From positions 1 to 54,993 of the IMG/VR virus record IMGVR_UViG_2923302340_000009: DNA of 54,993 nt. One strand, 5' to 3'. The position numbers were made by a program, and so were the translations under genes. Shown here piece by piece: positions 5,246-52,933 of this stretch. The stretch is from a virus. Lineage: Duplodnaviria > Heunggongvirae > Uroviricota > Caudoviricetes. The notes beneath the pieces were generated by a model, which made no database searches, was not told where the DNA came from, and saw only the letters and a list, made by a program, of their open reading frames with translations. Each line of letters starts with the position of its first letter. Position 1 is the first letter of the stretch.

Positions 5246-8647
<3,402 letters not shown>

Positions 8648-23980: not shown

Positions 23981-23993
23981 GAATATCAGCAAG

Positions 23994-24275: not shown

Positions 24276-24286
24276 AGCGTACTACG

Positions 24287-24829
24287 TTACTTATCTTTAT
24301 TCGGCTGCAACTTATCCGGTACGTTTCCGGCAGTTTCCATCAGATAATCGGACAGCATCAGCGGTATGTTTTCGTCAAGTTTTGCGCATGCGTTACAGGC
24401 TCTGATAACTTCTTTTTTCAGTCCATCCAGCATAGACGGCTTCATGTCGGGAAACTTCCTTGTCATGGCAAGCGGCAGGCTGTCCATGATTGAAGAAATC
24501 TGACTCGCCAATTTTGAAAGCACGTATATACAAAACGCTGTATCAATAACGTCGCCGCGTTCGCGCTCGTTTTTAAGCTCCTGCGCCTCTGCCTGTGCTG
24601 TCAGCAATCTGATCCTGACTCGTAGGAGTTCATCATCATCAATCTCGCCTTTGTCGTCTGTAATCTGGTTAATTGCATTGCTAACCCGATTGTCTATTAC
24701 GCTGGCAACATCATAAAACGCCTCGCGGCCTTTACGTTCAACGGGAGTCACTCCCCACTTGTCGAACGCTGTCGCACTTACACGGCAGCTTTGCGCCATG
24801 TTTTTTTTGTTCATCAGGTGCGATTTCAT
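24287..24829 (-). CDS. terminase small subunit-like protein (lambda Nu1 homologue) encoded by the island
   Basis: Aligns with lambda Nu1 core LTRAQADAQELKN...AFCTFVLSRIAGEIASILDGIPL; ATG at 24829 preceded by GGGGA; lies downstream of island cos. Confidence 0.75.
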   Translation of the reverse strand: MKSHLMNKKNMAQSCRVSATAFDKWGVTPVERKGREAFYDVASVIDNRVSNAINQITDDKGEIDDDELLRVRIRLLTAQAEAQELKNERERGDVIDTAFCIYVLSKLASQISSIMDSLPLAMTRKFPDMKPSMLDGLKKEVIRACNACAKLDENIPLMLSDYLMETAGNVPDKLQPNKDK

Positions 24830-24940
24830 CAATATCCCCACTTAAGTAATGTTTCAGGTTGGTGTATTGACTTTATCTTTTCCTTTTTATTCATAGAGAT
24901 AGAGCGAACAACAAAACCACCACCAGCACCCGAAAAAGGC

Positions 24941-25010
24941 TCATAAATAGCGAAAACCCGCGAGGTCGCCGCCCCGTAGCCTACCGGATCACCGGAAAGG
25001 ACCCGCCAGC
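24941..25010 (-). other. island cos site with canonical lambda-type cosN (GGGCGGCGACCT) and lambda-like cosQ-side flank, divergent cosB side
   Basis: Plus strand aaatagcgaaaacccgcg AGGTCGCCGCCC cgtagcctaccggatcaccggaaaggacccgcc (cosN 24963..24974); paralogous to prophage cos at about 37700. Confidence 0.75.
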
Positions 25011-25030
25011 CAGAGCGGGCCCTAATTTCA

Positions 25031-25414
25031 TCAACCAATCAGCTTATAGCGACCATCCCGTGCATTGCGGCGTACACGCTCAATCTTGAGGCATAGCGCC
25101 GCATCTGGCTTTTTTGGGACAGGTACGCGGCAATATTCAGAAGCGCGAGGAATATTATTTATCCAGTCGATCACTTCACTTAAATACCAGGCCTTACGCC
25201 CTTCCGTAACCTGCACACGCTCCGGGAACTCTCCACTAGCCTCAAGGTTTAGCAGTGTACGACGACTCAGGGTTGTAATTTCCATCACCTGATTCATATC
25301 AACAAGGCGCTCGCTTAAACACATTTTGTCAGCGATAGCTTTTAATTCCTCTACAGCTGGATTCGGGTACATCATTTCGGCAATTGGCTTAAGGTCATTG
25401 TAATCATTCTGCAT
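25031..25414 (-). CDS. AlpA-family HTH protein (second copy, in packaging module)
   Basis: Motif ITTLSRRTLLNLEASGEFPERVQVTEGRKAWYLSEVIDWI; strong SD AGGGGGA. Confidence 0.65.
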   Translation of the reverse strand: MQNDYNDLKPIAEMMYPNPAVEELKAIADKMCLSERLVDMNQVMEITTLSRRTLLNLEASGEFPERVQVTEGRKAWYLSEVIDWINNIPRASEYCRVPVPKKPDAALCLKIERVRRNARDGRYKLIG

Positions 25415-25425
25415 TGTATCCCCCT

Positions 25426-25767
25426 TTACACACGAGCCAGCGGCTGAACAGAAATACCTGAGCCAACAAACGCTGCAACCTTTACTGACAGTTCTTTAAC
25501 AGACTCAGGCCAGTTCAGAGCATCAACATTTAAGACACCTGTCTTATAGACCTGAGCCTGTGTTTTTTTCGCGGTGTCGATTTGTACAGCGGAAACATAA
25601 ACCGCTTTACCTACGCTCGAACCATCCCATACCACCAGTGCACCTGTTGCATCTTCCTGCATCAGTGGCGTAAATGCAGGAATTACCCCTTTATTAGCTG
25701 AAAATATCCCCAGCGTAGTCACCAGTGCTTCAGTGCCAGCCATGAGTTCAGTGTAATGAGTAGCCAT
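25426..25767 (-). CDS. head decoration protein, lambda gpD-like (island paralogue)
   Basis: 113 aa alignable to lambda gpD (PAFTPLM...VWDGSS...); SD AGGGGGAG. Confidence 0.75.
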   Translation of the reverse strand: MATHYTELMAGTEALVTTLGIFSANKGVIPAFTPLMQEDATGALVVWDGSSVGKAVYVSAVQIDTAKKTQAQVYKTGVLNVDALNWPESVKELSVKVAAFVGSGISVQPLARV

Positions 25768-25776
25768 TGCTCCCCC

Positions 25777-26823
25777 TTAGCCAATGCGAACGGTAACAAA
25801 ACGATTGATGCGGGCCGGTATTGGCTGTGGTGCTGAATGTGTCTGCACATATTCAATAGCCGGATCACCAGGCACAATATAGTTTTTCGGTGCAAGTTCG
25901 GCTTTAGTCAGCCCCATTCGGATTAGCTCCGGATCCTGAATACCGCCATAGGCGACAATCCCCTGAAGAGCCGTATTGCCAAGCACCATCAAATCAGGAT
26001 CAAGGAAATGTTTTTCTGTTCCGTCCTCGTCGGTATAACGCCCGCTGTAAACAACAATCGCAACATCGCCCATATACCCTTTAAAACTCACCGAATCACC
26101 AAGGTCTTTAAGGGCCGTTTCCAGTTCGGAATTAGAACCACGACGGGTATCCAAAGCCTCTTTTATCGCTCTGAATGAACGGTATTTCTTCCATACATTA
26201 CCACCCATAATGATGATATTAGTGACGCCCTCACTAAATTCTGCGTAGCTCTCAATATCATCATTTGGATCAAAAGTTTCTTTATCCTTACCTGACCACT
26301 CAGTACCGCCAGACTGAGTGATGATATTTTGTGGTTTTATATTCCAGTCCAGCTCATAACGTTCAATACCATCGCCCTCAATGATATTTTTCCCCGTTGT
26401 GATTGCCTGAACAGCAAGCCATTCAATACGTGCACGAATAGCTTTAGCCTGATTTACAATCGCCTGTTTAACTTTAATATTACGCGCCCCAAAAGCATTG
26501 TATTGCTCAGGTGACACACCAGCAGGGCGCACAGCTAACTTATTTGGATCAATGCTGCTTTTCGGCTTCATATAACCTGGACGAATTGTTTTTGATTCGT
26601 ATCCCTCATCTCGTGAAACTTTACTGCCCACCATAGGAGAGCAAAACGCCGCGATCGGGATATTTGGATCGTCGATCGTATCAAGAATAATGTCTCTCGA
26701 TTCAAACATTACCGAGCGAGTGAAAAACAAACTGGTAAACAACGCATTTAATTTTTTTTGCACATCTTCAGCATTAGCCACCTGCACAAGCTGTGTAGGC
26801 GAATATAAATCAACCATACTCAT
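25777..26823 (-). CDS. major capsid protein, lambda gpE-like (island paralogue)
   Basis: Roughly half identity to lambda gpE by eye across C-terminal two-thirds (QSGGTEW...LDTRRGSNSELETA...VAIVVYSG); start at MSMVDLYS with SD AAGAGGA. Confidence 0.8.
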   Translation of the reverse strand: MSMVDLYSPTQLVQVANAEDVQKKLNALFTSLFFTRSVMFESRDIILDTIDDPNIPIAAFCSPMVGSKVSRDEGYESKTIRPGYMKPKSSIDPNKLAVRPAGVSPEQYNAFGARNIKVKQAIVNQAKAIRARIEWLAVQAITTGKNIIEGDGIERYELDWNIKPQNIITQSGGTEWSGKDKETFDPNDDIESYAEFSEGVTNIIIMGGNVWKKYRSFRAIKEALDTRRGSNSELETALKDLGDSVSFKGYMGDVAIVVYSGRYTDEDGTEKHFLDPDLMVLGNTALQGIVAYGGIQDPELIRMGLTKAELAPKNYIVPGDPAIEYVQTHSAPQPIPARINRFVTVRIG

Positions 26824-26988
26824 CCTCTTTACATTCATTACAAATAATTGTGAATATATTCTATTACCGATGTCTGCTATGCGAACACATGCAACCAAGT
26901 GCAATGTTGTATAAAATATGCCGTAACAACTTCAGTGCTGATAATTCGTGTTAATGTATTTACTTCCTTTGGTCGGGATTTATGTAGC

Positions 26989-27028
26989 ATGCCGGAAAAT
27001 CTATTTTTTTCCGGCATCTTTTTGTTTG
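26989..27028 (+). terminator. plus-strand hairpin with T-tract between island ssb and capsid genes
   Basis: atgccggaaa / tttccggcat 10-bp stem followed by ctttttgtttg on plus strand; both neighbouring genes are on minus strand. Confidence 0.35.
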
Positions 27029-27034
27029 CAGAAT

Positions 27035-27457
27035 TTAAAACGGTATATTATCGCCGTACGGATCATCATTCCCCGACTGTTGTTTTGCCCTGTTCAGTGC
27101 GTCAGTGGCCTGCCCCTGCTGGCCTTTTTTGCCGCCCGGTCGCGCCGTTCGCGCACTGATTACGCTGTCTGCGATAACCTGCCAGCCCCGCCGCGTTTCG
27201 CCGTTCTGGCCTGTCCACTGGCTTACCTGCATGTTACCCGCCACGCTCACCAGTTCGCCTTTGTGGTGTTTTGCCAGTGCGTCGGCCTGTCTGCCAAACG
27301 CCAGGACGGATAACCACATCGTCGCCGTTCCGTCATCTGCCTGGCTGCACGGCAGGGGAACCGCCATACTCGCCATCGCCATTTGTGTCCCTTTGCTGGT
27401 GGTCTTTAACTGCGGGTCAGCCACCAGCCGCCCGTAAGCCGCTATCTGTGCTGTCAT
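27035..27457 (-). CDS. ssb: single-stranded DNA-binding protein (SSB-like)
   Basis: 140 aa with Gly/Gln-rich linker and acidic C-terminal tail DDPYGDNIPF typical of SSB. Confidence 0.75.
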   Translation of the reverse strand: MTAQIAAYGRLVADPQLKTTSKGTQMAMASMAVPLPCSQADDGTATMWLSVLAFGRQADALAKHHKGELVSVAGNMQVSQWTGQNGETRRGWQVIADSVISARTARPGGKKGQQGQATDALNRAKQQSGNDDPYGDNIPF

Positions 27458-27768
27458 GCTGTCTGCTCTCCGGTTTTAACATTGATGGTTGTCACCTGTT
27501 CCGCTTCGGCAATCTCCCGTTCTGTCAGCGTGGCAAAGTTTGCCGCTGCTGTGGTCATAAATGCGCTTATCAGGTCGGGATGTTCCTTCGCGTATCCTGC
27601 CCGTGTGTGGTGGTCTATCGCTTTGATTGCCACCTTTAAGGAAAGCTCTGTCATGTCTAACGCTTTATATTTTGCCTGTGTTCTGTCTCTGCGAATTTTG
27701 GTCATTTGTCGCCCCTGATTCATGTTTTCGGCTGGCATGTTTGTTAAGTGATTTTTATGTATGCGCAT
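27454..27768 (-). CDS. hypothetical protein translationally coupled to ssb
   Basis: 104-aa ORF; stop overlaps ssb ATG (ATGA). Confidence 0.45.
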   Translation of the reverse strand: MRIHKNHLTNMPAENMNQGRQMTKIRRDRTQAKYKALDMTELSLKVAIKAIDHHTRAGYAKEHPDLISAFMTTAAANFATLTEREIAEAEQVTTINVKTGEQTA

Positions 27769-27819
27769 TTATTTTCACCCCCCCTCGTTTAAAAAGTTTT
27801 TAGTTGTGCCTCCCCCCCT

Positions 27820-28045
27820 CTACCCATCTACCCGAATGCTCATCATGTCAGTAATGGCGCCGCTTTCAGCGGGTAGATAGCTTTTTTGACTCCTCTACCT
27901 GCCGTCTACCCTGCTACCTGAAACTGATAAAATCAGGTAGAAGAGGTAGAGAGCTTTTATTAGCCTTCTACCTAGCCCTATATCCACTTATCATGTTGAA
28001 TAATATGCATTTATTTCGTTCAGGTAGATGGGGTAGATGGCTTTT
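27820..28045. repeat. iteron cluster (GGTAGA / TCTACC motifs, about 12 copies in both orientations); putative island replication origin
   Basis: ctctaccc, atctaccc, gggtagat, aggtagaagaggtagag, ggtagatggggtagatgg immediately upstream of primase gene. Confidence 0.7.
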
Positions 28046-28053
28046 ACAAAAAA

Positions 28054-29808
28054 TTATAAAAACGCGTCGCAATCGTCTGTTGTAATTGCGTTGGTCTGCG
28101 TTACTCCCTTAACTTTTCGCGTAATATATTCATGCCCGTAAACTTTCGCCGCTGGCTTCATGGCCTTGCTGAACTCAGCCACGTTTAGCGGTTTGCTCCT
28201 GCCCGCGTATGCCATAAACGCCAGATAGACGCGGTAAAGGCTGTTCCTGGTCGTGTACTTCACTGAATCACCACCGCCACCCATCATCAGGCCGCGCGCT
28301 TCCTCCAGAAAATTCAGGAACTGGCAAAACTCAATAACCGGATCCGTCTGTTGCTTTATTGCCAGTGCTTCATCACCGTCACGCTGTTCCAGTAGTAAAG
28401 CCCGTGCCTTCTCAGGGTCGGTAAAGTTCGCCAGCAATCGGCGGATAATAACGGGGATTTCAGCCGCAATCTTTTCCGGTAGCTCCCTGTCTTTTTCGGC
28501 CTCACTGACGATATTGTCGAAACGGAAAATCACGCGACGACGTGCCACACCTCCGGCCCGTTCGGTGAATATCATCGGGTTGTTGTTGGTCGCCAGCACC
28601 ACCGCCCTGATTACCGCCGTGAAACGCTTTTCATATTTCGGGTTAATTTCCACGGGGTCGCCGCCTGTGATTTTCTTGATGCCCGTTCCTTCGCCTGTAT
28701 ATTTCGGCTGGTCAGCCAGGACGATAAGACGACTCCCGACAACCTGCGCACGTCCACCAGCATCATCAAGCGATGTCATTTCAGCGCTTACCGTGTTCTG
28801 TTTCCCTGCCAGAAGGCTGGCTATGTGTGTGAATGTACTTTTACCGCTCCCGCCGTCTCCGGTGGCCTCAATAAACATCTGCCAGTCGTACCGGTTCGCC
28901 ATAATCATGTACAGCGCGGCACATATACGCATCATCTTGCGCGGGTCTTTTCCGGCTGCGTGCTCAAGCCATTTATGAAAGTTTGGCGCGTTATCGCGGA
29001 TGTTCTCCCCTGGTGCTGGTGGCGTGTACTCAATGCCGTTGTGCGTGGTGATCCAGTTCTCCGGCGTGTGCGGGGAAAATTCCCCCGTTTTCAGGTCAAG
29101 CGCACCATTGGCGAACGGCAGCAAATCGCCAGACGGCTCGCCCATTGGTTCGGCAATAACTTTTAACGCTTCCACGGCGTTATTGATTACGCGCTTGCTG
29201 AAAGTGGCCCTGTGCTCTGAATAGATCGCCACCATTTCGCGGCTAAGTTCCATTGTGCTGACCGGACACCATACCCCGCCGCGCCATACGTGAACGATTT
29301 CACTTTCAGGATGTACGCAAACGCCATCAAAGCGATCGGCAAGCAACTGCGCGCGCTCACTGTCCGCCATCTGCGAAAGTTGCGCCTTTTGCTTTACCGG
29401 AAGCTCAATGACCAGACCATCAGAAAGATTCTGGCGTTCACGGGCCAGATATTCGCGCCAGGTCTGCACCTCCTGGCCGTGCATACCCTCAGGATAAAAA
29501 TTTGCATCCTGTACGCCTGCTGCCGCCAGCTTCTGACCAATCGCCTTTATCATTACAGGCGCAAGATATCCGGCCCTGTATATGCGTGCTGATTTTCGGC
29601 CTTCCGGCACAATTTGCAGATTATCCAGTTCGGATAGCTGCTGCTCCCCAAGCCACACAGGAGGCTCATTATCTCCGGCCATACGCGCATCATGTTCCTG
29701 CCATTGTTTCGCGTGTGCCCAGGCATCACTACCCGCAAAAATAATTACTTCTGTTCCTTTGTGTTTTATGCCGCGTGACTGCTGTTTTACGTTCGGTGCC
29801 AGTTTCAT
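28054..29808 (-). CDS. primase-helicase (P4 alpha-like replication protein with P-loop NTPase domain)
   Basis: 584 aa; Walker A GDGGSGKST; adjacent iterons; translationally coupled to upstream ORF. Confidence 0.75.
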   Translation of the reverse strand: MKLAPNVKQQSRGIKHKGTEVIIFAGSDAWAHAKQWQEHDARMAGDNEPPVWLGEQQLSELDNLQIVPEGRKSARIYRAGYLAPVMIKAIGQKLAAAGVQDANFYPEGMHGQEVQTWREYLARERQNLSDGLVIELPVKQKAQLSQMADSERAQLLADRFDGVCVHPESEIVHVWRGGVWCPVSTMELSREMVAIYSEHRATFSKRVINNAVEALKVIAEPMGEPSGDLLPFANGALDLKTGEFSPHTPENWITTHNGIEYTPPAPGENIRDNAPNFHKWLEHAAGKDPRKMMRICAALYMIMANRYDWQMFIEATGDGGSGKSTFTHIASLLAGKQNTVSAEMTSLDDAGGRAQVVGSRLIVLADQPKYTGEGTGIKKITGGDPVEINPKYEKRFTAVIRAVVLATNNNPMIFTERAGGVARRRVIFRFDNIVSEAEKDRELPEKIAAEIPVIIRRLLANFTDPEKARALLLEQRDGDEALAIKQQTDPVIEFCQFLNFLEEARGLMMGGGGDSVKYTTRNSLYRVYLAFMAYAGRSKPLNVAEFSKAMKPAAKVYGHEYITRKVKGVTQTNAITTDDCDAFL

Positions 29809-30104
29809 TTTTTACCTCTGAATCCGTTAATCATGGTTTTCATTTTCTGGATATTTCCCCACGCTTTTTCCCTGCTGATGGGCTTACTGCGGGGTGCGGC
29901 ATATACCAGGGAAAAATCACGCCGGAACTGATAAACAGGCATCACGCAGTCATAGCTATACCCCTCACGGCGGTAAGTGATGCGCCGTTCTGCCACGCCT
30001 TTAATCGTTACCGTGCCGCCGTATTTATCGCGGTAAATATCGCCGTTCATAAATTCAGGTCGAGCGGGGCCGCTGGCAATAAAGCCAGAATTTTTCATTT
30101 CCAT
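29805..30104 (-). CDS. hypothetical protein
   Basis: 99-aa ORF whose stop overlaps primase start. Confidence 0.45.
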   Translation of the reverse strand: MEMKNSGFIASGPARPEFMNGDIYRDKYGGTVTIKGVAERRITYRREGYSYDCVMPVYQFRRDFSLVYAAPRSKPISREKAWGNIQKMKTMINGFRGKK

Positions 30105-30121
30105 ATTATTTATTCCTCGAC

Positions 30122-30343
30122 TTAACTCGACTTATTTGATAGCAGGGCACTATTTATTGCGTCATTGAGTTTTTCTGCTGATTCATCAATAAGTGACAAC
30201 AGGCCATAAGCAATATTTGCATCTTCATTGTCATTTATGCAATCAAGCCACATATTTAATATTGCTTTTGCTGAATTATTTAAAGTTAATGAACTTTCTG
30301 CACATGCTAACAATTTAAAAAAGACTTCCCGTTCTGTATTCAT
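30122..30343 (-). CDS. hypothetical small protein
   Basis: 73-aa ORF in tightly packed three-gene array. Confidence 0.4.
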   Translation of the reverse strand: MNTEREVFFKLLACAESSLTLNNSAKAILNMWLDCINDNEDANIAYGLLSLIDESAEKLNDAINSALLSNKSS

Positions 30344-30535
30344 TTAATCCCCCACCAGCTTACTTTCTTCCTCAATCAAAAAACTAGCGACACTTCCCGA
30401 AAGACGCGCCAGTAGGCTCGCCAGTGCGGATATATCAGCATCTGTAATTTTGTTCGGGTATACCTCAAGAAGGCGGCAAATAATTTCTGTCTGGTGCGCA
30501 CGTTCAGCGGCTTCGTGTAATGTAATTTCCTGCAT
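30344..30535 (-). CDS. hypothetical small protein
   Basis: 63-aa ORF abutting neighbours. Confidence 0.4.
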   Translation of the reverse strand: MQEITLHEAAERAHQTEIICRLLEVYPNKITDADISALASLLARLSGSVASFLIEEESKLVGD

Positions 30536-30720
30536 TAATGCACCTCTTTTAATTCATACACTGCTGAAATAATGACTTGTGATAAGCCATATTCTGATGA
30601 TTCGCTTCTCACCGCAGCAATAGCCGTCTGAACATTAACAGCCTTCACATTCTGAGCGATACCAATTGTGTGGCCTATTGGGTTAACAGCTCGGGCAAAT
30701 ACACGGAAGGTTTTAAGCAT
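30535..30720 (-). CDS. hypothetical small protein
   Basis: 61-aa ORF with SD GGGAG; first gene of minus-strand array. Confidence 0.4.
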   Translation of the reverse strand: MLKTFRVFARAVNPIGHTIGIAQNVKAVNVQTAIAAVRSESSEYGLSQVIISAVYELKEVH

Positions 30721-31001
30721 GACTCACTCCCTGGCGGATTTTTGCAGCGAATACAGCAACACAACCGGACGGGCAACGGCTACGCGCTTCGCGTTCCGTC
30801 CAGGCGGTTACGTGGATGATTTGAGATTCTCCGGCACTCAGTGCCAGAAAACGCCACACAAAGGCCGTTTGTGTGTGTACAAGGTGTGGTATATGATTTA
30901 CAGCAACCATAACGGCTCCTAGTTTACGTTGTTGGTTAGACGCCCCGTATGTGTTCCCAGCACTGCGGGGCGTTGCTCTTTGTATTTCAACAATCCTTTC
31001 G

Positions 31002-31034
31002 GTGTGTTTCATGTTATGAGCGCATGAAACACAC
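31002..31034. promoter_or_regulatory. 12-bp perfect inverted repeat (gtgtgtttcatg N9 catgaaacacac) in divergent intergenic region; putative operator
   Basis: Lies between minus-strand small-gene array and plus-strand gene at 31101; half-site gaaacacac recurs at about 31071. Confidence 0.5.
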
Positions 31035-31100
31035 GTCAAGGCTTTTTGTATTTCTTTTTTTGTGTATACTGAAACACACCGATGATTAGGAGTTTCAGAA

Positions 31101-31406
31101 ATGGCAACGGCTAACAAAAACGCAAAATCACAACTGACAACTGTCAGAGTCCCACTAGATGTTATGCAAGGGATGGAATCCGTTAAGCTGGACGGTGAAA
31201 GCAATGCCGGATTTATCGTAACCGCCATGCGCGGAGAAATAGCCCGCCGCCAAGCAGAAGGCAGCGGAGAAAATCCCCTTGTGTCGTCACTGGATGCCCT
31301 GGCTAAGGTCGAACAAATCGGCATCAAAGCAGCCGAGGAGATCGGGCAACTCGTCACCGTCGCGCGTGAAGAACTCCAGCGACGCAAGGTCAAAGAGCAT
31401 GAATAG
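31101..31406 (+). CDS. hypothetical protein, candidate island regulator
   Basis: 101-aa ORF with SD AGGAG; divergent from small-gene array; downstream of operator-like repeats. Confidence 0.5.
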   Translation: MATANKNAKSQLTTVRVPLDVMQGMESVKLDGESNAGFIVTAMRGEIARRQAEGSGENPLVSSLDALAKVEQIGIKAAEEIGQLVTVAREELQRRKVKEHE

Positions 31407-31463
31407 CCAATATCAGCGCCATAGTTTGAGGAACGCAGGCGCATTGCTTTACAGGACAGCACC

Positions 31464-31643
31464 ATGAGCGACACAGAATCAACCAAAACACCATCACCAA
31501 CTCGTAAGAGACGACGCAAAAATATAGCGCATGAACATGAATCAGAAAGATTCGCACCTTGTTCGTTTGCTCTTGAGAAATTCCTTAAAGAGCACAGGAA
31601 AAAGCTCTCGTTGCAAACCTTGGAACGAACCAAATCTGACTGA
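31464..31643 (+). CDS. hypothetical small basic protein
   Basis: 59-aa ORF (not in track, below 60 aa) MSDTESTKTPSPTRKRRRKN...; followed by terminator. Confidence 0.3.
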   Translation: MSDTESTKTPSPTRKRRRKNIAHEHESERFAPCSFALEKFLKEHRKKLSLQTLERTKSD

Positions 31644-31709
31644 TCACATTGCCCACCAGCCGCAAATGTGGCATTGTTGGTGATGCTTTTGTTTTCCCTT
31701 GTTCCCACT

Positions 31710-31740
31710 GGCGACCCTTTTGCGGTCGCCTTTGTTTTGT
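31710..31740 (+). terminator. rho-independent terminator for plus-strand island genes
   Basis: ggcgacc-cttttgc-ggtcgcc hairpin followed by TTTGTTTTGT. Confidence 0.55.
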
Positions 31741-32318
31741 CACTGAATGCGGTTACCAAAGTAAAACTCAGGCTGATATTCACGTATCAGCGTTTTTTCT
31801 TCTTCCTCCAGCTCACGCTTTTTGCGCTTACATGCCTGTAGCTCCCTCCCCTTCTCGCTGGCACTTATTTGATATTGCTCTTTACGGCGGGAAAAATCCT
31901 GTAATGCACCCCACGGGATACCATAAGTCCCCGTTTTTCTGATACCTGGTATCACATTTCTGAATACCCAGTTACTGAAACGATGAGCAAATGTGCCAGG
32001 CGTCGTTGCTTTGCGGCTGCGGGCTATTAGTTTGTAGAAACCTGACTCAGAGATAATTCTCATATTCTGATTTCCTCCTGGGGTGTAAGTTAAATTTACT
32101 CCCTTTTCATCATCATCAAGCATCTGCAACGCCGTACGCGAATTGGTTAGTTCCAGCGCAGCACAAACATCTTTTGCAACAAACCACGGATCGCCGTTCA
32201 GATACACCACACGAACGTTCACACTATCAAAGCGCAGAACGACGAGATCACGAATATCGCAGAATTTTTTCACTGGACGAGCGTACCCCTTGCCCGTCAC
32301 GGCAATATTTTTATTCAT
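31740..32318 (-). CDS. BRO-N domain protein (antirepressor-like)
   Basis: N-terminal VVLRFDSVNVRVVYLNGDPWFVAKDVCAALEL resembles Bro-N/KilA-N family. Confidence 0.65.
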   Translation of the reverse strand: MNKNIAVTGKGYARPVKKFCDIRDLVVLRFDSVNVRVVYLNGDPWFVAKDVCAALELTNSRTALQMLDDDEKGVNLTYTPGGNQNMRIISESGFYKLIARSRKATTPGTFAHRFSNWVFRNVIPGIRKTGTYGIPWGALQDFSRRKEQYQISASEKGRELQACKRKKRELEEEEKTLIREYQPEFYFGNRIQ

Positions 32319-32334
32319 CGCGTTTTTACCTTAT

Positions 32335-32361
32335 AGACAAAAAACCCCTCGTGATGAGGGG
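32335..32361 (-). terminator. rho-independent terminator downstream of alpA
   Basis: On minus strand cccctcatcacgagggg followed by TTTTTTGTC. Confidence 0.55.
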
Positions 32362-32374
32362 CATTATTTACTGG

Positions 32375-32632
32375 TTATTGCTGTTTTGTTTTTCCAGGTT
32401 TCCATCCAGGATGCCACTCACCACGGATCCATGCCTGAACCTCTGAAAGTCGATACCCTGCAGCACGTTCACCGATCTTGATACGTCGCGGGAATTTACC
32501 TGCCTGCTCCATTTTCCAGCGTGTTGAGTTTGCCAGCGTGGTAAGTGCTATGCACTCTTTTTCACGAATGAACCGATCAATGTCCTTCATTGTGCGCAAA
32601 TCGTTTTCATCAACAAGAGAATAAATTGCCAT
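32375..32632 (-). CDS. alpA: AlpA-family transcriptional regulator/excisionase-like protein
   Basis: 85 aa; ...FPRRIKIGERAAGYRLSEVQAWI motif; immediately downstream of integrase. Confidence 0.75.
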   Translation of the reverse strand: MAIYSLVDENDLRTMKDIDRFIREKECIALTTLANSTRWKMEQAGKFPRRIKIGERAAGYRLSEVQAWIRGEWHPGWKPGKTKQQ

Positions 32633-32633
32633 A

Positions 32634-33875
32634 TCACACCACCTCTTTATTAAGCTCGATAACGTTGTTGTTAAATCCTGCTATCGTATTAAGGTAATTA
32701 ACCCACATATTAAGCACCTCAAGTTTTTTCTTTATATGCCTGCTTTTATTGTAAACACCAGCAACCCCTTTCACTTTATGACCTAAAAGAAGTTCGACAA
32801 TATAAGGATCCGCCCCCATATCATTAAGCGTAGTGGAAAATGTGCGCCTGAAATCATGTATGCACCACAAGCCATTAGTATCATGACCAAGACGCCTGCA
32901 TATTCTGTTTGCAGCCCCTGTTATTGTCGCCCTTTGCAAAGCACAACCGACAACATAACCGCGATTTTTTGTTTCTGCGTAAAGATTAACGATCCATTGT
33001 TTTATTCCGTCAGGAACAGGCCTTACTATAGCCTCCTTGTTTTTGCTGTGCTCTTTTGGGACTGTCCATACCCAGTTTTTTAAATCCCATTCGTCCCAGG
33101 TGGATAGCCTCGCCTCCTGCTGTCGGCAACCAAACACCAGGCAGATAACCATTATTCTTCGGTTATATATTGATGACAGAGTTAGCAAATTATTACCGTA
33201 AGCATAAGACCATACATCAGCGGTTTCATTGATATTAAGAACGCGATCCCTTATACCGGATGAGCGCCCGACATAACTTACGTTAATATCTCCAAAGGGA
33301 TCGCACGCGATGTATTGCCTGACGCGACAAAAACGCAACGCCTGTTTGATATCAAGAAAAATTGCACCAGACATAACAGGCGCATTTTTTTTGATCCTGT
33401 CAAAGACGGTAAGCCATGTGTGTAATTTGCACTGTTCTATAGCCATATCACCGATATAGGGGAAGATATGCTTTTCAAATCGTTTTATTAAATATTCATG
33501 CTCTTTTCTGGCTGTTGTGGCGTGATTGTCGTACCAGTAAAACAGCGCATCCCTTACGGTCACTGGTTGCATAGTTTTTTCGGCAGCAAGTTTTATTTGC
33601 CTGCGGGGGTCCAGATTTTCAGCCAGCCATTCACGGCACTGATCACGCATGCGCCTGGCCGTTGCAAGAGACATGTCAGGATAGCGACCAAGTGTAAGCC
33701 ATACCGGAGGGAATTCCCTGCCACCAAGACGATAGTAAAAAACAAAGCTGATCCCCCCAACCATGCTTACACGCACAGACAACCCGCGCCCATCCGCTAT
33801 TGTTTTTTGTTTGTCCTGCCGTTTTCCGACAAGACTCTTTAACAGTTTGTCACTGAGTTTGTTTTCAATAGCCAT
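32634..33875 (-). CDS. int: P4-type tyrosine integrase
   Basis: 413 aa; P4-like N-terminal arm-binding region and C-terminal HDFRRTF...LLGH...Y catalytic region; adjacent to island end. Confidence 0.85.
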   Translation of the reverse strand: MAIENKLSDKLLKSLVGKRQDKQKTIADGRGLSVRVSMVGGISFVFYYRLGGREFPPVWLTLGRYPDMSLATARRMRDQCREWLAENLDPRRQIKLAAEKTMQPVTVRDALFYWYDNHATTARKEHEYLIKRFEKHIFPYIGDMAIEQCKLHTWLTVFDRIKKNAPVMSGAIFLDIKQALRFCRVRQYIACDPFGDINVSYVGRSSGIRDRVLNINETADVWSYAYGNNLLTLSSIYNRRIMVICLVFGCRQQEARLSTWDEWDLKNWVWTVPKEHSKNKEAIVRPVPDGIKQWIVNLYAETKNRGYVVGCALQRATITGAANRICRRLGHDTNGLWCIHDFRRTFSTTLNDMGADPYIVELLLGHKVKGVAGVYNKSRHIKKKLEVLNMWVNYLNTIAGFNNNVIELNKEVV

Positions 33876-33893
33876 TAAAAGCCCTCAAGAGAT

Positions 33894-33947
33894 TTGCAAT
33901 ACACACCCATCCCGATCGCCAATTTGCAATACACATTGCAATACACA
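33894..33947. repeat. three direct copies of TTGCAATACACA next to integrase start (putative arm-type binding sites)
   Basis: Copies at about 33894, 33924, 33936; same motif at left island end. Confidence 0.55.
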
Positions 33948-34023
33948 AAACCGCGAAAAACTGGAAGGGTGATGAACGGTCATCAAAAGCATGGAAAACG
34001 ACATTCCAGACGCAGCAAGGGTT

Positions 34024-37004
<2,981 letters not shown>

Positions 37005-40025: not shown

Positions 40026-40829
40026 ATGACAGAAAAAGATAACATTGGTAAGTTAATTTGGCATATTGCTTGCGATGAATCTGGCATTGATGGGCAACGT
40101 TTCTACGGCTTTGGCAGTCTGTGGATGAAGTACCAACGCCGTGGGGATTTCTGTCAACTAATCAGAGAACTACGCAGCAAACATGGTTTTTTTGAAGAAA
40201 TAAAATGGCAAAAAGCCCATTCAAAAAGATACTCTGAATTTTATCTTGAGCTGATCGACTTATTCTTTAGAGTTCCTTGGCTAGCTTTTCATTGTATCGT
40301 GGTTGAAAAATCAATAGTAAACAAGGCATTTCATAATGGGGATTATGACCTGGCAAGGAGAAAGCACTTCACAAATCTCATTACCACAAAAATTAGCTCT
40401 GTAATTTCTGCACACCCTGAAAGAGACAGTTACTTCAGGATTGAAGTTGATCCTATCGCATCTCGTTATAAAAAGGCCGATGAAGAACTAAATGTTATTG
40501 CCAATAACATATTGAATAGAAAATTTGGTCGTAAAGGGATAATCAGCAGTGTAGTGACAAAAGACTCTAAAGCATCTGAAAACATTCAGCTAGCCGATTT
40601 TTTCTTAGGTGCGGTTATGTGCGCATATCAAGGAAAAGCTTCATCTGAAGCCAAAATAAGAGTATCAAACTATGTTGCTTCATATTTAGGCTGGGATCAT
40701 TTGCAATATGATACATGGCACACTGAGAGAAAATTTAATATCTGGTATTTTTATGATAAAACTCGAGGGCCACGAGATATAGAAACTCAAAATGTTAGCT
40801 TAAAGTATCCACTTCCCCAAAAGAAATAG
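40026..40829 (+). CDS. DUF3800-like protein (moron between Q and lysis genes, opposite strand)
   Basis: N-terminal DESG motif (IACDESGIDG) and C-terminal QLAD motif (IQLADFFLGAV) characteristic of DUF3800 as I recall it. Confidence 0.6.
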   Translation: MTEKDNIGKLIWHIACDESGIDGQRFYGFGSLWMKYQRRGDFCQLIRELRSKHGFFEEIKWQKAHSKRYSEFYLELIDLFFRVPWLAFHCIVVEKSIVNKAFHNGDYDLARRKHFTNLITTKISSVISAHPERDSYFRIEVDPIASRYKKADEELNVIANNILNRKFGRKGIISSVVTKDSKASENIQLADFFLGAVMCAYQGKASSEAKIRVSNYVASYLGWDHLQYDTWHTERKFNIWYFYDKTRGPRDIETQNVSLKYPLPQKK

Positions 40830-42236: not shown

Positions 42237-42523
42237 GCCTTGATTACCCCCTCTTTCAGCCAGATAACCTGCGTTCTCGCCATACCTTCCAGCGCGCATT
42301 CTTTTGCGTACTCAGCATCGACAAAATGCGTGCGGCGGTCGATTTCGTCGTGACAGGCAGAACAGGCAATGGTGGCAATAAGGTCTGGCGGTTTGATACC
42401 GGTACCGCACAATCCAGCCAGCCGGATATGTGCCAGTACTGACGTTTCAGGATTGCCATTACATACGCCAGGGATTCTTACCTGGCATTCCCGACCACGC
42501 GCTGCTTTTCTCAAATCAGCCAT
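42233..42523 (-). CDS. ybcO: YbcO-like nin-region protein (DUF1364, Cys-rich)
   Basis: Matches DLP12 YbcO from [23 protein letters not shown]. Confidence 0.8.
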
Positions 42524-42686
42524 GATTCCTCCTTGCTGCCAGTCGCAACCATTTTTTATCAACCAGGCTGGCGGTATACCCGAGCAGTGTTGGTATTTCG
42601 GATGGCTTCAGCTCAGGTTTACGCTTACGACGATTTGGTACTTTGTAGATGTGTCCGTTCATGACACGAATAAGCGGTGTAGCCAT
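42516..42686 (-). CDS. ninE: NinE
   Basis: 56-aa [40 protein letters not shown]... (not in track); overlaps ybcN stop and ybcO start. Confidence 0.7.
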   Translation of the reverse strand: MATPLIRVMNGHIYKVPNRRKRKPELKPSEIPTLLGYTASLVDKKWLRLAARRNHG

Positions 42687-43141
42687 TACGCCTCCTGCTT
42701 GTCGCGCAGCAGCTGGAACTCGCAGCTCTGCGGAATAGTCAGGTGGCAGCCAATATTCATCGCCCAGGCTTCAACCTTACACAGGAAGACATACATCTCT
42801 CCGGTATCAAGATCGGAGGTATGGCGTAACGACTGGATAGTAGTGATTTCGCCGGTTACGACATCAACCAGGTCCTTGGTTTCATAACCGAGGTATGTGT
42901 GTTTGAGAGCATCTTTTACCCAAGCTGGAGTAGCAAACGTTTTACCCCTGCTGATGAGGTACTCACTAATTTCGCTGTACCACATGTGGCTAAGTGCATT
43001 CTGGGAAAGACTGCGTCTCTTGCGCCACGGTTTAAGCACCATGCGAAAGCATTTGCCTTCCTCCAGATAAGGCTGGATCTGCTGGCCGATAGCGGTGAAG
43101 TTGCCGCGATGTAATTTGATGCCGTCTTGTGAGAGGTTCAC
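42686..43141 (-). CDS. ybcN: YbcN-like protein (DUF1367)
   Basis: 151 aa, matches DLP12 YbcN. Confidence 0.8.
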
Positions 43142-43328
43142 GCTTCACCTCCGCAGAGGTCAAACGCTAGATGCAAAGAATTGCAGGTGCATTTCTGCAT
43201 CTGTGAAGGGAGAAGAGAGTTTGGATTGTATGTGCGCATAAACGTCCCCGTTTAGCGCAGAAGTCACCGGAGTTGTTCAGGCTCCGATGACATGATTATG
43301 GCTAATAGCTTAGTTTTTATCAATTGTA

Positions 43329-44639
43329 CTATGGATTAGAGAGTGAATCTGGATGTGGTATTTCAGCCATGACCTCCTCTGCATCACAGTTGTCGATAAA
43401 AAAGTATAAAGTTGAGTCAACAATTTTTAAACGCCTGGTACCTTGATCATAATCGAATAATGGCGGAACGATATTCTGATTTGTTTGAAGTATAGGCAAT
43501 CGCTTCAGTGTCCCTGTTACATCAGAAGTTCTGACGTTATCAGGATGAGTATGTATTTCTTTAATAAGTTCCTGTAGAGTCTTTCTCTCAATCCCATCCT
43601 TGAGCTCAGAATAAGTTCTACTTAACAGAACTTGAACTAAATAATACTGAAGATACAAAGCCACAGCCTCTTCACTTGGCCTGCGACTTCGACTCCCTGC
43701 GGCAATTGACTCAAGACTACGGACATGTCTTGACGAATAATCTGCAACCTTAACGTCAATTGCTCTTTGTAGAACGGCCATATCACTCAAATAAACTACT
43801 TCTTGTTGGACCATTCGTATTCCTGACAATTCACAAAGTTGCTTAAGAAGCTCTTGCACTACTGCAACACTTCCATGGGCCTCTTCAAATATACGCTCTT
43901 TAATTTGCTCTGAAATAGATATATTTAAACACTGCTCGCCAACTGTAGCGATTCTTGAAAAGTCACCTTTATCCCATGGCTCAACAGGAACCTCAGCCAT
44001 ACGGTCCTGTAAGTCGCCATTAAACTGAATAAGACGATTATTTTCTCTCCATACTCCGAGTATGATAAATCTAATACCCATTTCTTCAAATGTACGAAGA
44101 TCAAATGCCAACTGTCCTTGAACTTCAACAGAGAGATAATGAAAGTTTTCGAGAACGAAGAACTTATCCTTCCCGCCAACATTAATCAATAATTCTCCTA
44201 CATCTTGTGCCGCCGTCAAGTTGAACTCAATCGGCCTAGATTTTGTTTCTGTATTTTTGGATATCGTCCCTTCAACCCCCGCCTCTACTTCAGTTTTTGC
44301 TAAAAATGGCAGGATGGCAGAAAAAGTGCTTTTTAAAGACGCTGAAGCCTCCTTAGAGTTACCTGTTGTTCTCTCGGTAATAATTTCCACTCCAAAGTGA
44401 CGTAAAAATGTACGATAGATATCTTCCGCAGAATTGGTGGGACCACAATGATATGTAACCCTGCTGTTTTCATCTAAATGGCGCTGAAGTAAGGCTGTTT
44501 TCCCTTGTTTTGATGAGCCATAAATCACGATCTGCTTCGTCGTTGCAAGTGCATCAGCAAGTGCCTGATCGACCTTTTCACGTTCAATATAGCTGGCTAC
44601 CGGATCTCTTGATACTCCGAATACATTATTTAGATGCAT
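43329..44639 (-). CDS. P-loop NTPase (AAA-like ATPase) of unknown function; nin-region moron
   Basis: Walker A GSSKQGKT, Walker B-like FFVLENF; AT-rich gene flanked by AT-rich DNA. Confidence 0.6.
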   Translation of the reverse strand: MHLNNVFGVSRDPVASYIEREKVDQALADALATTKQIVIYGSSKQGKTALLQRHLDENSRVTYHCGPTNSAEDIYRTFLRHFGVEIITERTTGNSKEASASLKSTFSAILPFLAKTEVEAGVEGTISKNTETKSRPIEFNLTAAQDVGELLINVGGKDKFFVLENFHYLSVEVQGQLAFDLRTFEEMGIRFIILGVWRENNRLIQFNGDLQDRMAEVPVEPWDKGDFSRIATVGEQCLNISISEQIKERIFEEAHGSVAVVQELLKQLCELSGIRMVQQEVVYLSDMAVLQRAIDVKVADYSSRHVRSLESIAAGSRSRRPSEEAVALYLQYYLVQVLLSRTYSELKDGIERKTLQELIKEIHTHPDNVRTSDVTGTLKRLPILQTNQNIVPPLFDYDQGTRRLKIVDSTLYFFIDNCDAEEVMAEIPHPDSLSNP

Positions 44640-44825
44640 GGTTCATTTCCTTGTTATAAAAGAAAAATCTTAGCATATTAATACATTAATAACTTCCGCC
44701 CCTTGTTTAACTGTACAATTAATAGACTTTTATGCCTCCTACCCAATGACCGGAAGAATATCCGTAATACCTAGCCCCATTTATCACCTTGTCATGAGTT
44801 GAATCCGAGGTCCGTAGCCTCCCTA

Positions 44826-44860
44826 GCAAAATAGCCCTCCATTCGGAAGGGCTATTTTTA
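44826..44860. terminator. bidirectional rho-independent terminator
   Basis: 11-bp stem aaaatagccct / agggctatttt with A-tract before and T-tract after. Confidence 0.55.
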
Positions 44861-45028
44861 GATTGTTATAAATCGAGCAGTTTCCCAATGAGTGGAGAGC
44901 ACTAAAATGTCTAAATAGTCATAAGGGCAATATCCAAAATCTCCAACAACAATTGGTAGTCTTATAAATTACTCAGTTCAACATACGGTAGGTGTGTTTC
45001 TAATTGATGAAGTAGCATGGTGCGTTAT

Positions 45029-45361
45029 TTAATGTAGTGCACTTCGTGACAACAAATTAATCACCAACACACCGGCACAAATCAACATCATGCCTATAAT
45101 GGCTGGCAGGTCCAGCCGTTGGCCGAAAAATCCCCATGACAGTAAGCTAATCAGGACAATCCCGACTCCTGACCAGATAGCATAAGCAATCCCTGTAGGA
45201 ATATAAGCCAGCGTCTGAGCTAATAACCAGAATGATGCACAGTAACAAATAATTGTACCAACAGATGGCCATAACCGTGTAAAACCTTCTGAAAACTTCA
45301 TTAAGGTTGTACCAATGACCTCTGCAAGTATTGCACCACCAAGATAAATATAAGGGTTCAT
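45029..45361 (-). CDS. emrE: small multidrug resistance efflux protein EmrE
   Basis: 110 aa from MNPYIYLGGAILAEVIGTT; near-identical to E. coli EmrE. Confidence 0.92.
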   Translation of the reverse strand: MNPYIYLGGAILAEVIGTTLMKFSEGFTRLWPSVGTIICYCASFWLLAQTLAYIPTGIAYAIWSGVGIVLISLLSWGFFGQRLDLPAIIGMMLICAGVLVINLLSRSALH

Positions 45362-45428
45362 AGCATATTCTTTCCTGTTCAAACTGGAGAGAATTGTACT
45401 ACAGTTTGAACTCAACTCACCTGTTTCA

Positions 45429-45731
45429 TCATTGTGTTCCCATTGATGTTCTTTTATATACCCTCAATACCCGTTTCATCGCGGCACTCTGGCGACACTC
45501 CTTAAAAATCAGATTCGTGCTCACCTTTCCTTCCCGTTCTTCTCTGGTAGCGAACCGGTAATACACCGTTCGCCAGACCTTACCATCAACGACCAGGATT
45601 CCTGCCCGCGCCATTTTAGCCGCAGCCTGATTTATGCTGGTTACGGTTGCGCCTGTTACCGCGGCAACGTCCTGTGCACAGAAGCTCTTATGCGTCCCCA
45701 GGTAATGAATAATTGCCTCTTTGCCCGTCAT
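45429..45731 (-). CDS. ren: Ren protein
   Basis: Matches lambda Ren (MTGKEAIIHYLGTH...). Confidence 0.85.
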   Translation of the reverse strand: MTGKEAIIHYLGTHKSFCAQDVAAVTGATVTSINQAAAKMARAGILVVDGKVWRTVYYRFATREEREGKVSTNLIFKECRQSAAMKRVLRVYKRTSMGTQ

Positions 45732-51717: not shown

Positions 51718-51869
51718 CGCATCCTCACGATAATATCCGGGTAGGCGCGATCACTTTCGTCTACTCCATTACAAAGCGAGGCTGGGTATTTCCCGGCCTT
51801 TCTGTTATCAGAAATCCACTGAAAGCACAGCGGCTGGCTGAGAAGATAAATAATAAACAGGAGGATATA
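51714..51869 (+). CDS. small ORF downstream of exo (lambda orf60a-like N-terminus)
   Basis: 51-aa [31 protein letters not shown]...; ATG overlaps exo stop. Confidence 0.45.
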
Positions 51870-52933
51870 TGAGTCAGGTTGGTAATCATTCATTCGAATT
51901 TCCGGCATCGCAAGGTGTACAGGGTGGTACTGTTACACTCTTCCTTACCATACCAGGAAGATCGCTGGCTCGTTTCCTCGCTTCAGATAATTACGGCCAT
52001 ACACTGGAACGCTCTCAGCGAGAAATTAATCCAAATCGAGTACGAAAATTTTTAAATTATCTCACTAACGCAGACTCAAGAAATGAGCCTTTTATCATTC
52101 CCCCTCTCGTAGGTAACTGTGATTCGAATATAGAATTTGTACCGTTTGGCAACACAAATGTTGGTATAGCCAGAATTCCCCTCGACGCCGAAATAAAACT
52201 TTTTGATGGTCAACATCGTGCAGCTGGCATTGAGATATTTTGCCGAAGCTCCCCATCAACGCTCATGGTTCCCATGATGCTTACAATGAATCTGCCGCTA
52301 AAAACCCGGCAGCAGTTCTTTTCGGACATAAATAACAACGTTTCTAAGCCATCAGCGACCATCAATATGGCGTATAACGGCCGGGATGATATTGCTCAGG
52401 GAATGATATCCTTCCTGACCCAACATACTGTATTTGCCGATATAACCGATTTTGAACACAACGTAGTGCCATTAAAAAGTAATATGTGGGTGAGTTTCAA
52501 GGCACTCACTGATGCAACGTCAAAGTTCGCTAGGAACGGCAATCAACAACTTGAAATGGGATATATAGAATCTGTCTGGGAGGCATGGATTACACTAACT
52601 CAGATTGACTCAATTCGACATGGTGTACACCACGCTACGTACAAGCGCGATTATATTCAGTTCCATGGAGTAATGATTAACGCTTTCGGTTTTGCGGTTC
52701 AACAGATGATGGTTAATCATTCCATCGCAGAAATAACTTCTATGATCGAAAAACTATGTGCAACTACCAGCTCTGCAGAAAGAGAGGATTTTTTTCTGAT
52801 GGATAACTGGGCGGGGATCTGCACGAAAGCCAGCCAGGAAAAACTATCTGTTATTGCCAATGTGGCAGCGCAGAAAGCAGCAGCAAACAGACTGATACAA
52901 GCTTTTACCAAAGGAAGTCTGGAAACAACTTAA
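51869..52933 (+). CDS. DGQHR-domain protein (DndB-like), stand-alone
   Basis: Exact DGQHR motif (KLFDGQHRAAGIE); 354 aa; SD AGGAGGA; between exo and xis. Confidence 0.65.
   Translation: MSQVGNHSFEFPASQGVQGGTVTLFLTIPGRSLARFLASDNYGHTLERSQREINPNRVRKFLNYLTNADSRNEPFIIPPLVGNCDSNIEFVPFGNTNVGIARIPLDAEIKLFDGQHRAAGIEIFCRSSPSTLMVPMMLTMNLPLKTRQQFFSDINNNVSKPSATINMAYNGRDDIAQGMISFLTQHTVFADITDFEHNVVPLKSNMWVSFKALTDATSKFARNGNQQLEMGYIESVWEAWITLTQIDSIRHGVHHATYKRDYIQFHGVMINAFGFAVQQMMVNHSIAEITSMIEKLCATTSSAEREDFFLMDNWAGICTKASQEKLSVIANVAAQKAAANRLIQAFTKGSLETT

Follow-up and report, generated by a model that had tools for sequence, protein, structure and literature searches.

The 54,993-nt IMG/VR virus record IMGVR_UViG_2923302340_000009 (Caudoviricetes), analysed over its full length and called the window below, holds a lambdoid prophage that looks complete and occupies the DLP12 (intD) site. 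Between its emrE and ybcN genes lies a solitary gene for a P-loop ATPase, the subject of this study. The gene (43329..44639, minus strand) is an intact open reading frame (ORF) of 436 codons with an ATG start. The window is 100% identical to the chromosome of E. coli CFSAN018748 (NZ_CP028192.1), where RefSeq labels the product WP_107236128.1, "hypothetical protein"; its start methionine is the same in homologues. Read along the minus strand, the genes come in the order O, P, ren, emrE, the ATPase gene, a 33-residue ORF, ybcN, ninE, ybcO, rusA, ylcG and Q. The features of the locus, all on the minus strand, are as follows.

43303..45027, minus strand: variable cargo cassette of 1,725 bp, between the ybcN-proximal 33-residue ORF and the emrE stop codon (blastn, annotation, GC content)
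43329..44639, minus strand: coding sequence of the 436-residue PDC-S59-family AAA+ ATPase (WP_107236128.1)
43332..43739, minus strand: C-terminal helical and winged-helix-like domain, residues 301–436 (predicted structure, alignment, regional divergence)
44001..44048, minus strand: family signature W197-x-E199-x-N-R-L-x-Q-x-N207-G-D-L-Q-D-R213, after strand beta4 (conservation)
44136..44162, minus strand: Walker B strand and motif F160-F-V-L-E164-N165-F-H-Y168 (predicted strand, conservation)
44235..44375, minus strand: hypervariable insert, residues 89–135, between helix 2 and the Walker B strand (predicted beta-hairpin and low-confidence loop)
44496..44519, minus strand: Walker A motif or P-loop, G41-S-S-K-Q-G-K-T48 (column conservation, n = 70)
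44640..44827, minus strand: AT-rich 5′ region with the expected promoter (extended −10 element and ribosome-binding site read from the sequence)
44828..44859, minus strand: intrinsic terminator of the symmetric (bidirectional) type, in the interval from emrE to the ATPase gene (terminator scan, RNA fold)

The gene arrived as a sharply bounded unit. In blastn comparison with a K-12-type DLP12 locus (L002), homology is found only at 42501–43302 and 45028–45642; it stops at 43302 and restarts at 45028, at the emrE stop codon, which defines a cassette of 1,725 bp (43303–45027) in place of 3,657 bp that carry ybcM, ybcL, ybcK and a small ORF in K-12-type DLP12. GC content is 0.38–0.42 in the ATPase gene and its upstream spacer, compared with 0.50–0.54 in ybcN/rusA and O/P. 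Of 5,426 complete E. coli genomes, about 2,900 have the flanking ybcN module and 4 have the cassette. The exact window protein always occupies the emrE-to-ybcN slot, yet the prophages that carry it differ in their Q, lysis and immunity-side modules. The first-pass annotation of this DNA, made from the letters alone, had described an AT-rich 436-residue protein between ybcN and emrE where DLP12 has other genes and had proposed a recently acquired moron; the ORF call, base composition, sharp edges and rarity all agree with that description. A scan of the cassette with Rfam returned no RNA match, and none of the small ORFs upstream of the ATPase gene is credible. The scan for edge repeats found no terminal inverted repeats of note flanking the cassette; a single 12-nt imperfect inverted pair (TATCAATTGTAC / GTACAATTAATA, at 43318–43329 / 44713–44724) brackets the ATPase ORF, and we judged it a chance occurrence.

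The cassette carries a terminator and candidate expression signals of its own. An intrinsic terminator, AAAAAUAGCCCUUCC-GAAU-GGAGGGCUAUUUU at 44828–44859, has a 13-bp stem between an A-tract and a U-tract and folds at −18.4 kcal/mol (z = −3.86, with 0 of 200 shuffles equally stable); it would insulate the ATPase gene from the emrE operon and early-right read-through. A bidirectional terminator had been noted earlier as part of the DNA flanking the gene: the terminator itself is there, and it sits upstream, between emrE and the ATG, not on both sides. A Shine–Dalgarno sequence (AAGGAA, 44647–44652) stands 7 nt ahead of the ATG, and a candidate extended −10 element, TGcTAAGAT (44667–44675), was read from the sequence about 28 nt upstream of it. 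We infer that the gene has its own promoter within 44640..44827, a region not shared with the Klebsiella cassette described below. A sigma-70-like site (TTGATA-17-CATAAT, 10/12) at 43295–43323 on the minus strand, directly after the ATPase stop and directed toward ybcN, may, like the 12-nt inverted repeat, be a chance match in AT-rich DNA.

Running the defence-finder check that had been proposed, we found that the PADLOC library assigns the protein, nearly full length, to PDC-S59 (hidden Markov model PDLC05049, E = 1.5e-72, 243 bits, residues 2–414 against positions 4–399 of 428). Every sampled branch of its relatives, including archaeal and P2-borne ones, matches the same model with 233–276 bits (E of about 1e-70 to 1e-83), and profile similarity thus places the ATPase in this family. 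The PDC set comprises 145 single- and multi-gene candidates that are recurrently embedded within known defence systems (Payne et al., doi 10.1101/2024.01.29.577857). A word-indexed search returned at least 1,483 homologous clusters, all unnamed, and when 1.84 billion representatives were searched exhaustively with a profile, the clusters at 50% identity numbered 1,961 at E <= 1e-3, 1,143 at 1e-10 and 307 at 1e-30. Lengths are almost all 415–450 residues. Relatives occur in Gamma- and Betaproteobacteria, Firmicutes, Cyanobacteria, Planctomycetota, Bacteroidota, Acidobacteriota and the Candidate Phyla Radiation (CPR), and in the archaeal Methanomassiliicoccales and Nitrosopumilus (Thaumarchaeota), the last two with full-length identities of 35–49%; 51 IMG/VR viral contigs also carry PDC-S59 relatives. 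This high identity across domains, combined with a patchy distribution, indicates horizontal transfer. Compared with an enterobacterial group at about 80% identity, synonymous divergence (dS) is saturated and non-synonymous divergence (dN) is 0.14–0.17, indicating strong purifying selection; together with the at least 1,483 clusters, this shows that the ORF is not a chance one. The ATPase gene is a genuine, intact gene under selection that moves horizontally and stands alone.

General databases say little about the family. Pfam matches are all below threshold (AAA_22, 24.4 bits against a cut-off of 27; ATPase_2, 15.6 against 33.2; AAA_35, 15.1 against 27; nSTAND6, 15.5 against 27.7), and PF13401 is on record for about a quarter of the close relatives. 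An NCBIfam search with the window protein returned nothing, PHROGs gave a weak partial match to a family of unknown function only, and searches of PDB sequences with the protein or a 32-sequence profile gave only P-loop noise (concatenated RecA and RuvB, E > 1e-4). Among longer homologues, a scan for fused effectors found no nuclease, TIR, SIR2 or protease domain; two carry an extra nSTAND3 NTPase and one has a weak alpha/beta-hydrolase match. The two nSTAND3 proteins, P0147 (791 residues) and P0151 (860 residues), are rare and join an N-terminal nSTAND3 NTPase to a complete PDC-S59 module, as fusions or merged gene calls.

Conservation was read from alignment columns of 70 independent family members. 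The Walker A motif GSSKQGKT seen in the first-pass annotation is confirmed within YGSSKQGKT (residues 40–48): G41, S43, K44, Q45, G46 and K47 are invariant (70/70), and position 48 is T or S. The Walker B-like motif also stands, as FFVLENFHY (residues 160–168, predicted strand 160–164), with E164, F166, H167 and Y168 invariant. In place of the hhhhDE pattern with a catalytic Glu it reads hhhh-E164-N165, retaining the acidic metal ligand. In AAA+ ATPases the catalytic residue is the Glu just after the Walker B acidic residue; here position 165 is N in 59 of the 70 sequences and D in the other 11, which are the P2-borne branch; no sequence has E. E164 serves as the metal-binding acidic residue, and the non-Glu residue at 165 suggests a slow ATP switch.

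The most conserved stretch of the protein is a family signature (column entropy H = 0.80, the lowest of any window) in which W197 and R213 are invariant, E199 is found in 69/70 and D209 in 68/70. In the predicted structure, E199 and N201 follow beta4 and R213 stands just ahead of strand beta5 (214–218); on the strength of this position, R213 is a candidate arginine finger. Conserved C-terminal residues include H363, D398 and D408, with a PPLFD-x-D398 motif and a DSTLYFF wing. The insert at residues 89–135 has the top column entropies (2.8–3.0 bits) and a predicted local distance difference test score (pLDDT) below 50 at 90–105 and 110–132, and it is a candidate specificity or sensor surface. 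Regional dN is 0.36 in this insert, 0.46 in the linker (271–300), 0.09 in the ATPase core and 0.07, the lowest value, in the C-terminal domain, a pattern that the column entropies of the 70 sequences repeat. An intact nucleotide site combined with a weakened catalytic position and a candidate trans-acting Arg is characteristic of ATP-governed assembly switches such as Orc1/Cdc6, TnsC/MuB and STAND proteins, rather than of motors.

An AlphaFold model built from a 32-sequence alignment (mean pLDDT 79, predicted template-modelling score 0.75, low confidence only in loop 90–132) predicts an AAA+ base, a helical lid and a winged-helix-like C-terminal domain, the last with helices at 352–362 and 371–387 and strands at 395–398 and 403–406. 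The nearest structural matches of this model are the archaeal proteins PABY2304/SSO1545 and Orc1/Cdc6, followed by TnsC/MuB and STAND proteins; a Foldseek search against the PDB placed Orc1, PABY2304 and Cdc6 on top, and alignments to Orc1/Cdc6 and PABY2304 extend over 279–300 residues, C-terminal domain included. The resemblance to initiators and RFC is at the level of fold, at 9–16% identity, and Foldseek against BFVD found only generic clamp-loader/AAA+ similarity (TM <= 0.43). A C-terminal DNA-binding domain had been suggested earlier; the winged-helix-like fold is indeed predicted, and DNA binding does not follow from it, the domain being acidic (pI 5.8) and the likeness one of fold only. 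Because of the same acidity we gave less weight to the idea that the winged helix simply coats DNA.

To place the gene in its genomic settings, genes were called in 130 loci, which reduced to 78 independent sets (<80% target identity), and 111 nearest-neighbour genes from 61 genome loci were scanned with Pfam and PADLOC. No recurrent partner gene was found among the 78 loci, and no family is common to the 111 neighbours; an apparent conserved −1 partner in eight loci proved to consist of N-terminal fragments of split copies of the family gene itself and was discarded. With no RNA or credible small ORF in the cassette either, the earlier description of a stand-alone gene holds. Genes that do recur nearby belong to mobile elements and encode tyrosine integrases, CI/LexA-type repressors and the P2 gpA, portal and terminase proteins. 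Also among the 111 are GajA, GajB, type IIG and type IV restriction enzymes, DrmMI, AriA/mad3-like ATPases and PDC-S05. GajA adjoins the family gene in Psychromonas and GajB does so in a Phycisphaerae metagenome-assembled genome (MAG); literal embedding in Gabija was rejected, the two genes belonging to different loci, and in the loci sampled we found adjacency to defence systems only, with no case of the family gene embedded inside one. On an integrase-bearing island of P. putida the family gene comes after ThsA (SIR2/STALD) and ThsB (TIR) of a Thoeris system. In Variovorax a type IIG restriction-modification gene and a resolvase lie beside it, and in Variovorax guangxiensis (L142, 9347–10426) a 359-residue ORF with no Pfam match overlaps the family-gene stop by 4 nt, which suggests a lineage-specific operon partner not seen at other loci. 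In P. syringae the family gene closes a P2/pyocin-like cluster that also holds SRAP, UmuDC, a KAP NTPase and an integrase; in Serratia it occupies a slot within a siphovirus tail module, and in Xanthomonas it adjoins the prophage integrase.

Two cargo slots of enterobacterial prophages recur. In a Klebsiella prophage an 80% relative sits in the equivalent replication-to-nin slot, after a DnaC/IstB-like gene and followed, about 670 bp beyond, by a 633-residue NACHT gene (L134, 9978–11879), an arrangement seen in all four Klebsiella contexts examined; the pair may form a two-gene defence islet or may be co-resident cargo. In E. coli the ybcN-to-ren slot is hypervariable: each of the six genomes sampled has a cargo set of its own. 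One of these genomes, E. coli SCU-171 (NZ_CP054363.1; L156, 6149–7078), has in the ybcN-proximal slot a 309-residue homologue of BstA, annotated as "hypothetical protein" (PADLOC E = 3.6e-121). BstA is a validated single-protein prophage abortive-infection system that is usually described as placed downstream of cI (PMC8585504), and its ybcN-proximal location is therefore atypical. The second slot is that of the branch at about 30% identity, which lies between the P2 replication endonuclease gpA and the portal gpQ, an interval identified as the old/tin defence hotspot (PMC9122126) and confirmed as such in PMC13586616. The representative of this branch in the hotspot, WP_000402159, is carried by 11 of the 5,426 E. 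coli genomes and is labelled "hypothetical" in the hotspot table of Rousset (Table S5, PMC9122126). In E. coli APEC IMT5155 it is accompanied by an opposite-strand DUF4145 gene (L148, 3856–4596), and in another strain by a KAP NTPase; the P2 hotspot cargo is combinatorial.

These observations are best explained if a lambdoid prophage residing at the DLP12 site has picked up an autonomous accessory cassette made of this one gene. We lean towards its being an anti-phage defence gene, a preference that rests on genomic context and on published validation rates of 50–78% for comparable candidates: four of eight in the one study we found that assayed PDCs, which covered S01, S02, S05, S09, S27, S70, M05 and HEC-01, a set without S59 (PMC12881386), seven of nine HEC candidates (Payne et al., doi 10.1101/2024.01.29.577857), and six of eight P4-hotspot genes without known function (PMC13586616). 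The first-pass annotation had said that the gene could be a single-gene defence system, and PDC-S59 membership, the P2 hotspot, the defence-gene neighbours and BstA in the slot support it as a candidate. Most likely it would protect the lysogen, and hence the prophage, against other phages.

A possible course of events can be outlined. With the terminator upstream of it, a promoter of its own would drive the gene, and the protein would rest as an ATP- or ADP-bound monomer, with Asn in place of the Walker B catalytic Glu slowing hydrolysis so that it acts as a switch and not a motor. A phage component, either a protein or replicating DNA, would be recognised through the insert at 89–135, the linker at 271–300 or both; recognition would trigger ATP-dependent self-assembly with R213 at the subunit interfaces, and the assembly would sequester or occlude the phage target, blocking phage DNA replication, packaging or growth. 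The outcome would be like that of BstA and P2 Tin, single-protein prophage defences found in the same slots. This combination of insert or linker sensing, R213-mediated assembly and target sequestration is a conjecture, and we hold it only tentatively. It is likewise doubtful, though worth stating, that PDC-S59 represents a minimal effector-less immune ATPase, a bare switch of the Orc1/Cdc6-STAND type, 35–45% identical from E. coli to Thaumarchaeota and Methanomassiliicoccales, in which the ATP-locked assembly on the phage target is itself the effector.

Several points weigh against a defensive role. No effector domain is recognisable, neither nuclease, TIR, SIR2, protease nor membrane domain in the Pfam scan and the predicted model, and the killing or blocking step is conjecture. 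The acidity of the protein (pI 5.3 overall) and of its winged-helix-like domain counts against simple DNA coating. PDC-S59 is a candidate family without any tested member: the PADLOC authors call PDCs untested (doi 10.1101/2024.01.29.577857), and the DefensePredictor authors excluded them as unvalidated. None of the papers searched names PDC-S59 or WP_107236128, and a search on COG1672 and defence gave nothing useful. By tblastn, no relative is present in 50,697 sequenced phage genomes. Many neighbours at chromosomal loci are housekeeping genes. Split gene copies occur in 8 of the 78 independent loci (L007, L047, L065, L070, L072, L076, L077 and L078, near 8000–9300); these may be frameshift pseudogenes, suggesting a cost of carriage, or MAG assembly errors. 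Finally, a consensus sigma-70 scan of the 5′ region found no match of at least 9/12.

Among other explanations, we consider it unlikely, though less so than the rest, that the gene is mobile cargo with a different role in conflict, either anti-defence for the carrier phage or inter-element competition and exclusion directed at satellites or plasmids. Counter-defence and competition genes also occupy prophage cargo slots, no copy of the family has been tested, an effector-less ATP switch as modelled would suit the binding and inactivation of a partner, and the window's own prophage has a satellite-like element in its portal gene. Yet many family copies lie in chromosomal islands or MAG contigs without nearby phage genes, beside Thoeris, Gabija and restriction-modification systems, PADLOC drew the family from genes that sit within defence systems, and the search of 50,697 isolated phage genomes found no relative. 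To our knowledge, anti-defence proteins are mostly small, and a 436-residue protein with a conserved ATPase would be atypical. An ATP-dependent transcription regulator of the MalT/STAND or AAA+-winged-helix type, acting on prophage or host genes, is improbable: the predicted winged helix would suit such a protein, but its region is acidic, the protein lacks a sensor-repeat domain, the 78 independent loci have no target operon or neighbour in common, and the position of the gene varies among replication, tail, integrase-adjacent and P2-hotspot slots.

Location and fold are what recommend a phage replication-associated AAA+ protein (an initiator, helicase loader or clamp-loader accessory): the window gene lies just downstream of O-P-ren, the Klebsiella relative comes just after a DnaC/IstB-like gene, and Orc1/Cdc6 and RFC subunits are among the best fold matches. 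Clear homology to a housekeeping or phage replication ATPase, which would have spoken against defence, did not emerge; the likeness is confined to fold, with no backing from profiles or genomic linkage, no match to a Pfam, NCBIfam or PHROG replication family, and nothing beyond the P-loop in HMMER searches of Pfam, NCBIfam and PDB sequences. The prophage already has a complete O/P pair, an intrinsic terminator separates its replication operon from the ATPase gene, the gene is present in four E. coli genomes against about 2,900 with the flanking module, and relatives occupy non-replication slots and non-phage islands. We regard a replication role as still less probable than a regulatory one. 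Least probable of all, to the point of being barely worth entertaining, is the reading that the gene descends, as relic or orphan, from a transposition target-selection ATPase (TnsC, TniB, MuB or IstB-like). TnsC/MuB do appear among the structural matches, but only 1 of the 111 nearest neighbours is a transposase, Pfam gives the window protein no TniB match, the cassette lacks notable terminal inverted repeats, and a solitary gene of uniform length, kept by strong purifying selection, does not suit a relic.

Set beside known systems, the ATPase is nearest to PDC-S59 itself, of the same family and single-gene architecture, which is a bioinformatic candidate by guilt-by-embedding and comes without a proposed mechanism. 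PABY2304 (PDB 2qen) and SSO1545 (PDB 2fna), "Walker-type ATPases" of PF01637 (ATPase_2), are 14–15% identical to the window protein, which differs from PF01637 proteins in having E-N rather than D-E at Walker B and an extra hypervariable hairpin insert. With the Orc1/Cdc6 initiators (PDB 2qby, 2v1u and 1fnn) it has no sequence-level homology; unlike them it has an acidic C-terminal domain, and its gene is mobile, patchy and, across loci, not linked to origins or replication genes. The predicted fold shares with STAND/NLR-like NTPases (Avs, bNACHT, NB-ARC, MalT) the module of nucleotide-binding domain, helical domain and winged helix. In contrast to them the protein has neither an N-terminal effector nor a C-terminal repeat sensor (TPR, WD40 or LRR) and no further Pfam domain; its 436 residues amount roughly to the nucleotide-binding module alone, and the nSTAND6 score stays below its cut-off. 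BstA (PMC8585504) and P2 Tin and Old (PMC9122126) are likewise solitary prophage cargo genes, BstA in the same ybcN-proximal slot (SCU-171), Old and Tin defining the gpA-portal hotspot of the relatives at about 30% identity. BstA has KilA-N/HTH-type domains and a DNA self-immunity element, aba, and Old is an ABC ATPase-TOPRIM nuclease; none of the three is related to the window protein in sequence or fold, and the analogy with BstA, Tin and Old is one of lifestyle, possibly of outcome, only.

Any PADLOC run would flag this gene, and the idea of a defence candidate is thus already on record. What is new here is the fold, the E-N/E-D Walker B signature and the other invariant motifs, the hypervariable insert, the solitary nature of the gene, its two E. 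coli prophage hotspots and the breadth of the family. Activity of the gene would be the first functional evidence for a pan-prokaryotic family that spans bacteria, CPR and archaea (about 1,100–2,000 clusters at 50% identity), with two natural points of entry in E. coli, the copy in the lambdoid replication/nin slot and the copy in the P2 old/tin hotspot. Should the effector-less reading hold, the protein would be a switch without nuclease, NADase, pore or protease, in a class distinct from STAND/Avs, ABC-ATPase and BREX-type systems, and its mechanism could explain how such a bare AAA+/STAND-like switch acts against a phage. An inactive gene would be another mobile gene without an assigned function, an ordinary finding. 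The ybcN-to-ren slot of DLP12-type prophages is a cargo hotspot able to carry defence genes, because BstA sits there in SCU-171.

Other parts of the window prophage and its relatives also carry insertions and cargo. The portal gene is annotated as two fragments (22405–23178 and 34024–34905) about 11 kb apart. The insert between them (~23179–34023) has genes for a tyrosine integrase, HTH regulators, BRO-N, an Icd-like protein, a DNA primase, a single-stranded DNA-binding protein, a major capsid protein, a head-decoration protein and a small terminase subunit, and it looks like a capsid-encoding phage satellite, similar to a phage-inducible chromosomal island, in the portal gene of its own helper prophage; if a satellite does split the portal gene, the window prophage would be defective. 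An IS66-family element, ISCro1 (tnpA, tnpB and transposase, 16554–19169), lies between the head-tail joining and FI packaging genes. A second AT-rich moron (40026–40829, plus strand, GC ~0.37–0.38) is found on the opposite strand between antiterminator Q and the holin; its product is a 267-residue DUF3800 protein that matches PADLOC PDC-M04A (E = 7.7e-35) and phrog_3732. PDC-M04 is by definition a two-family cassette (Payne et al., doi 10.1101/2024.01.29.577857). In the immunity-left cargo position, relatives of the window prophage have DUF6414, or HipA_2 with DUF3037, and in E. coli strain 131 a SIR2-family gene (L157, 10594–11613) stands there beside the repressor of a related prophage. In the early-left region of the window, after bet, exo and DUF1317, a gene at ~51869–52933 (plus strand) encodes a DGQHR-domain (DndB-like) protein, which is possibly conflict-related cargo.

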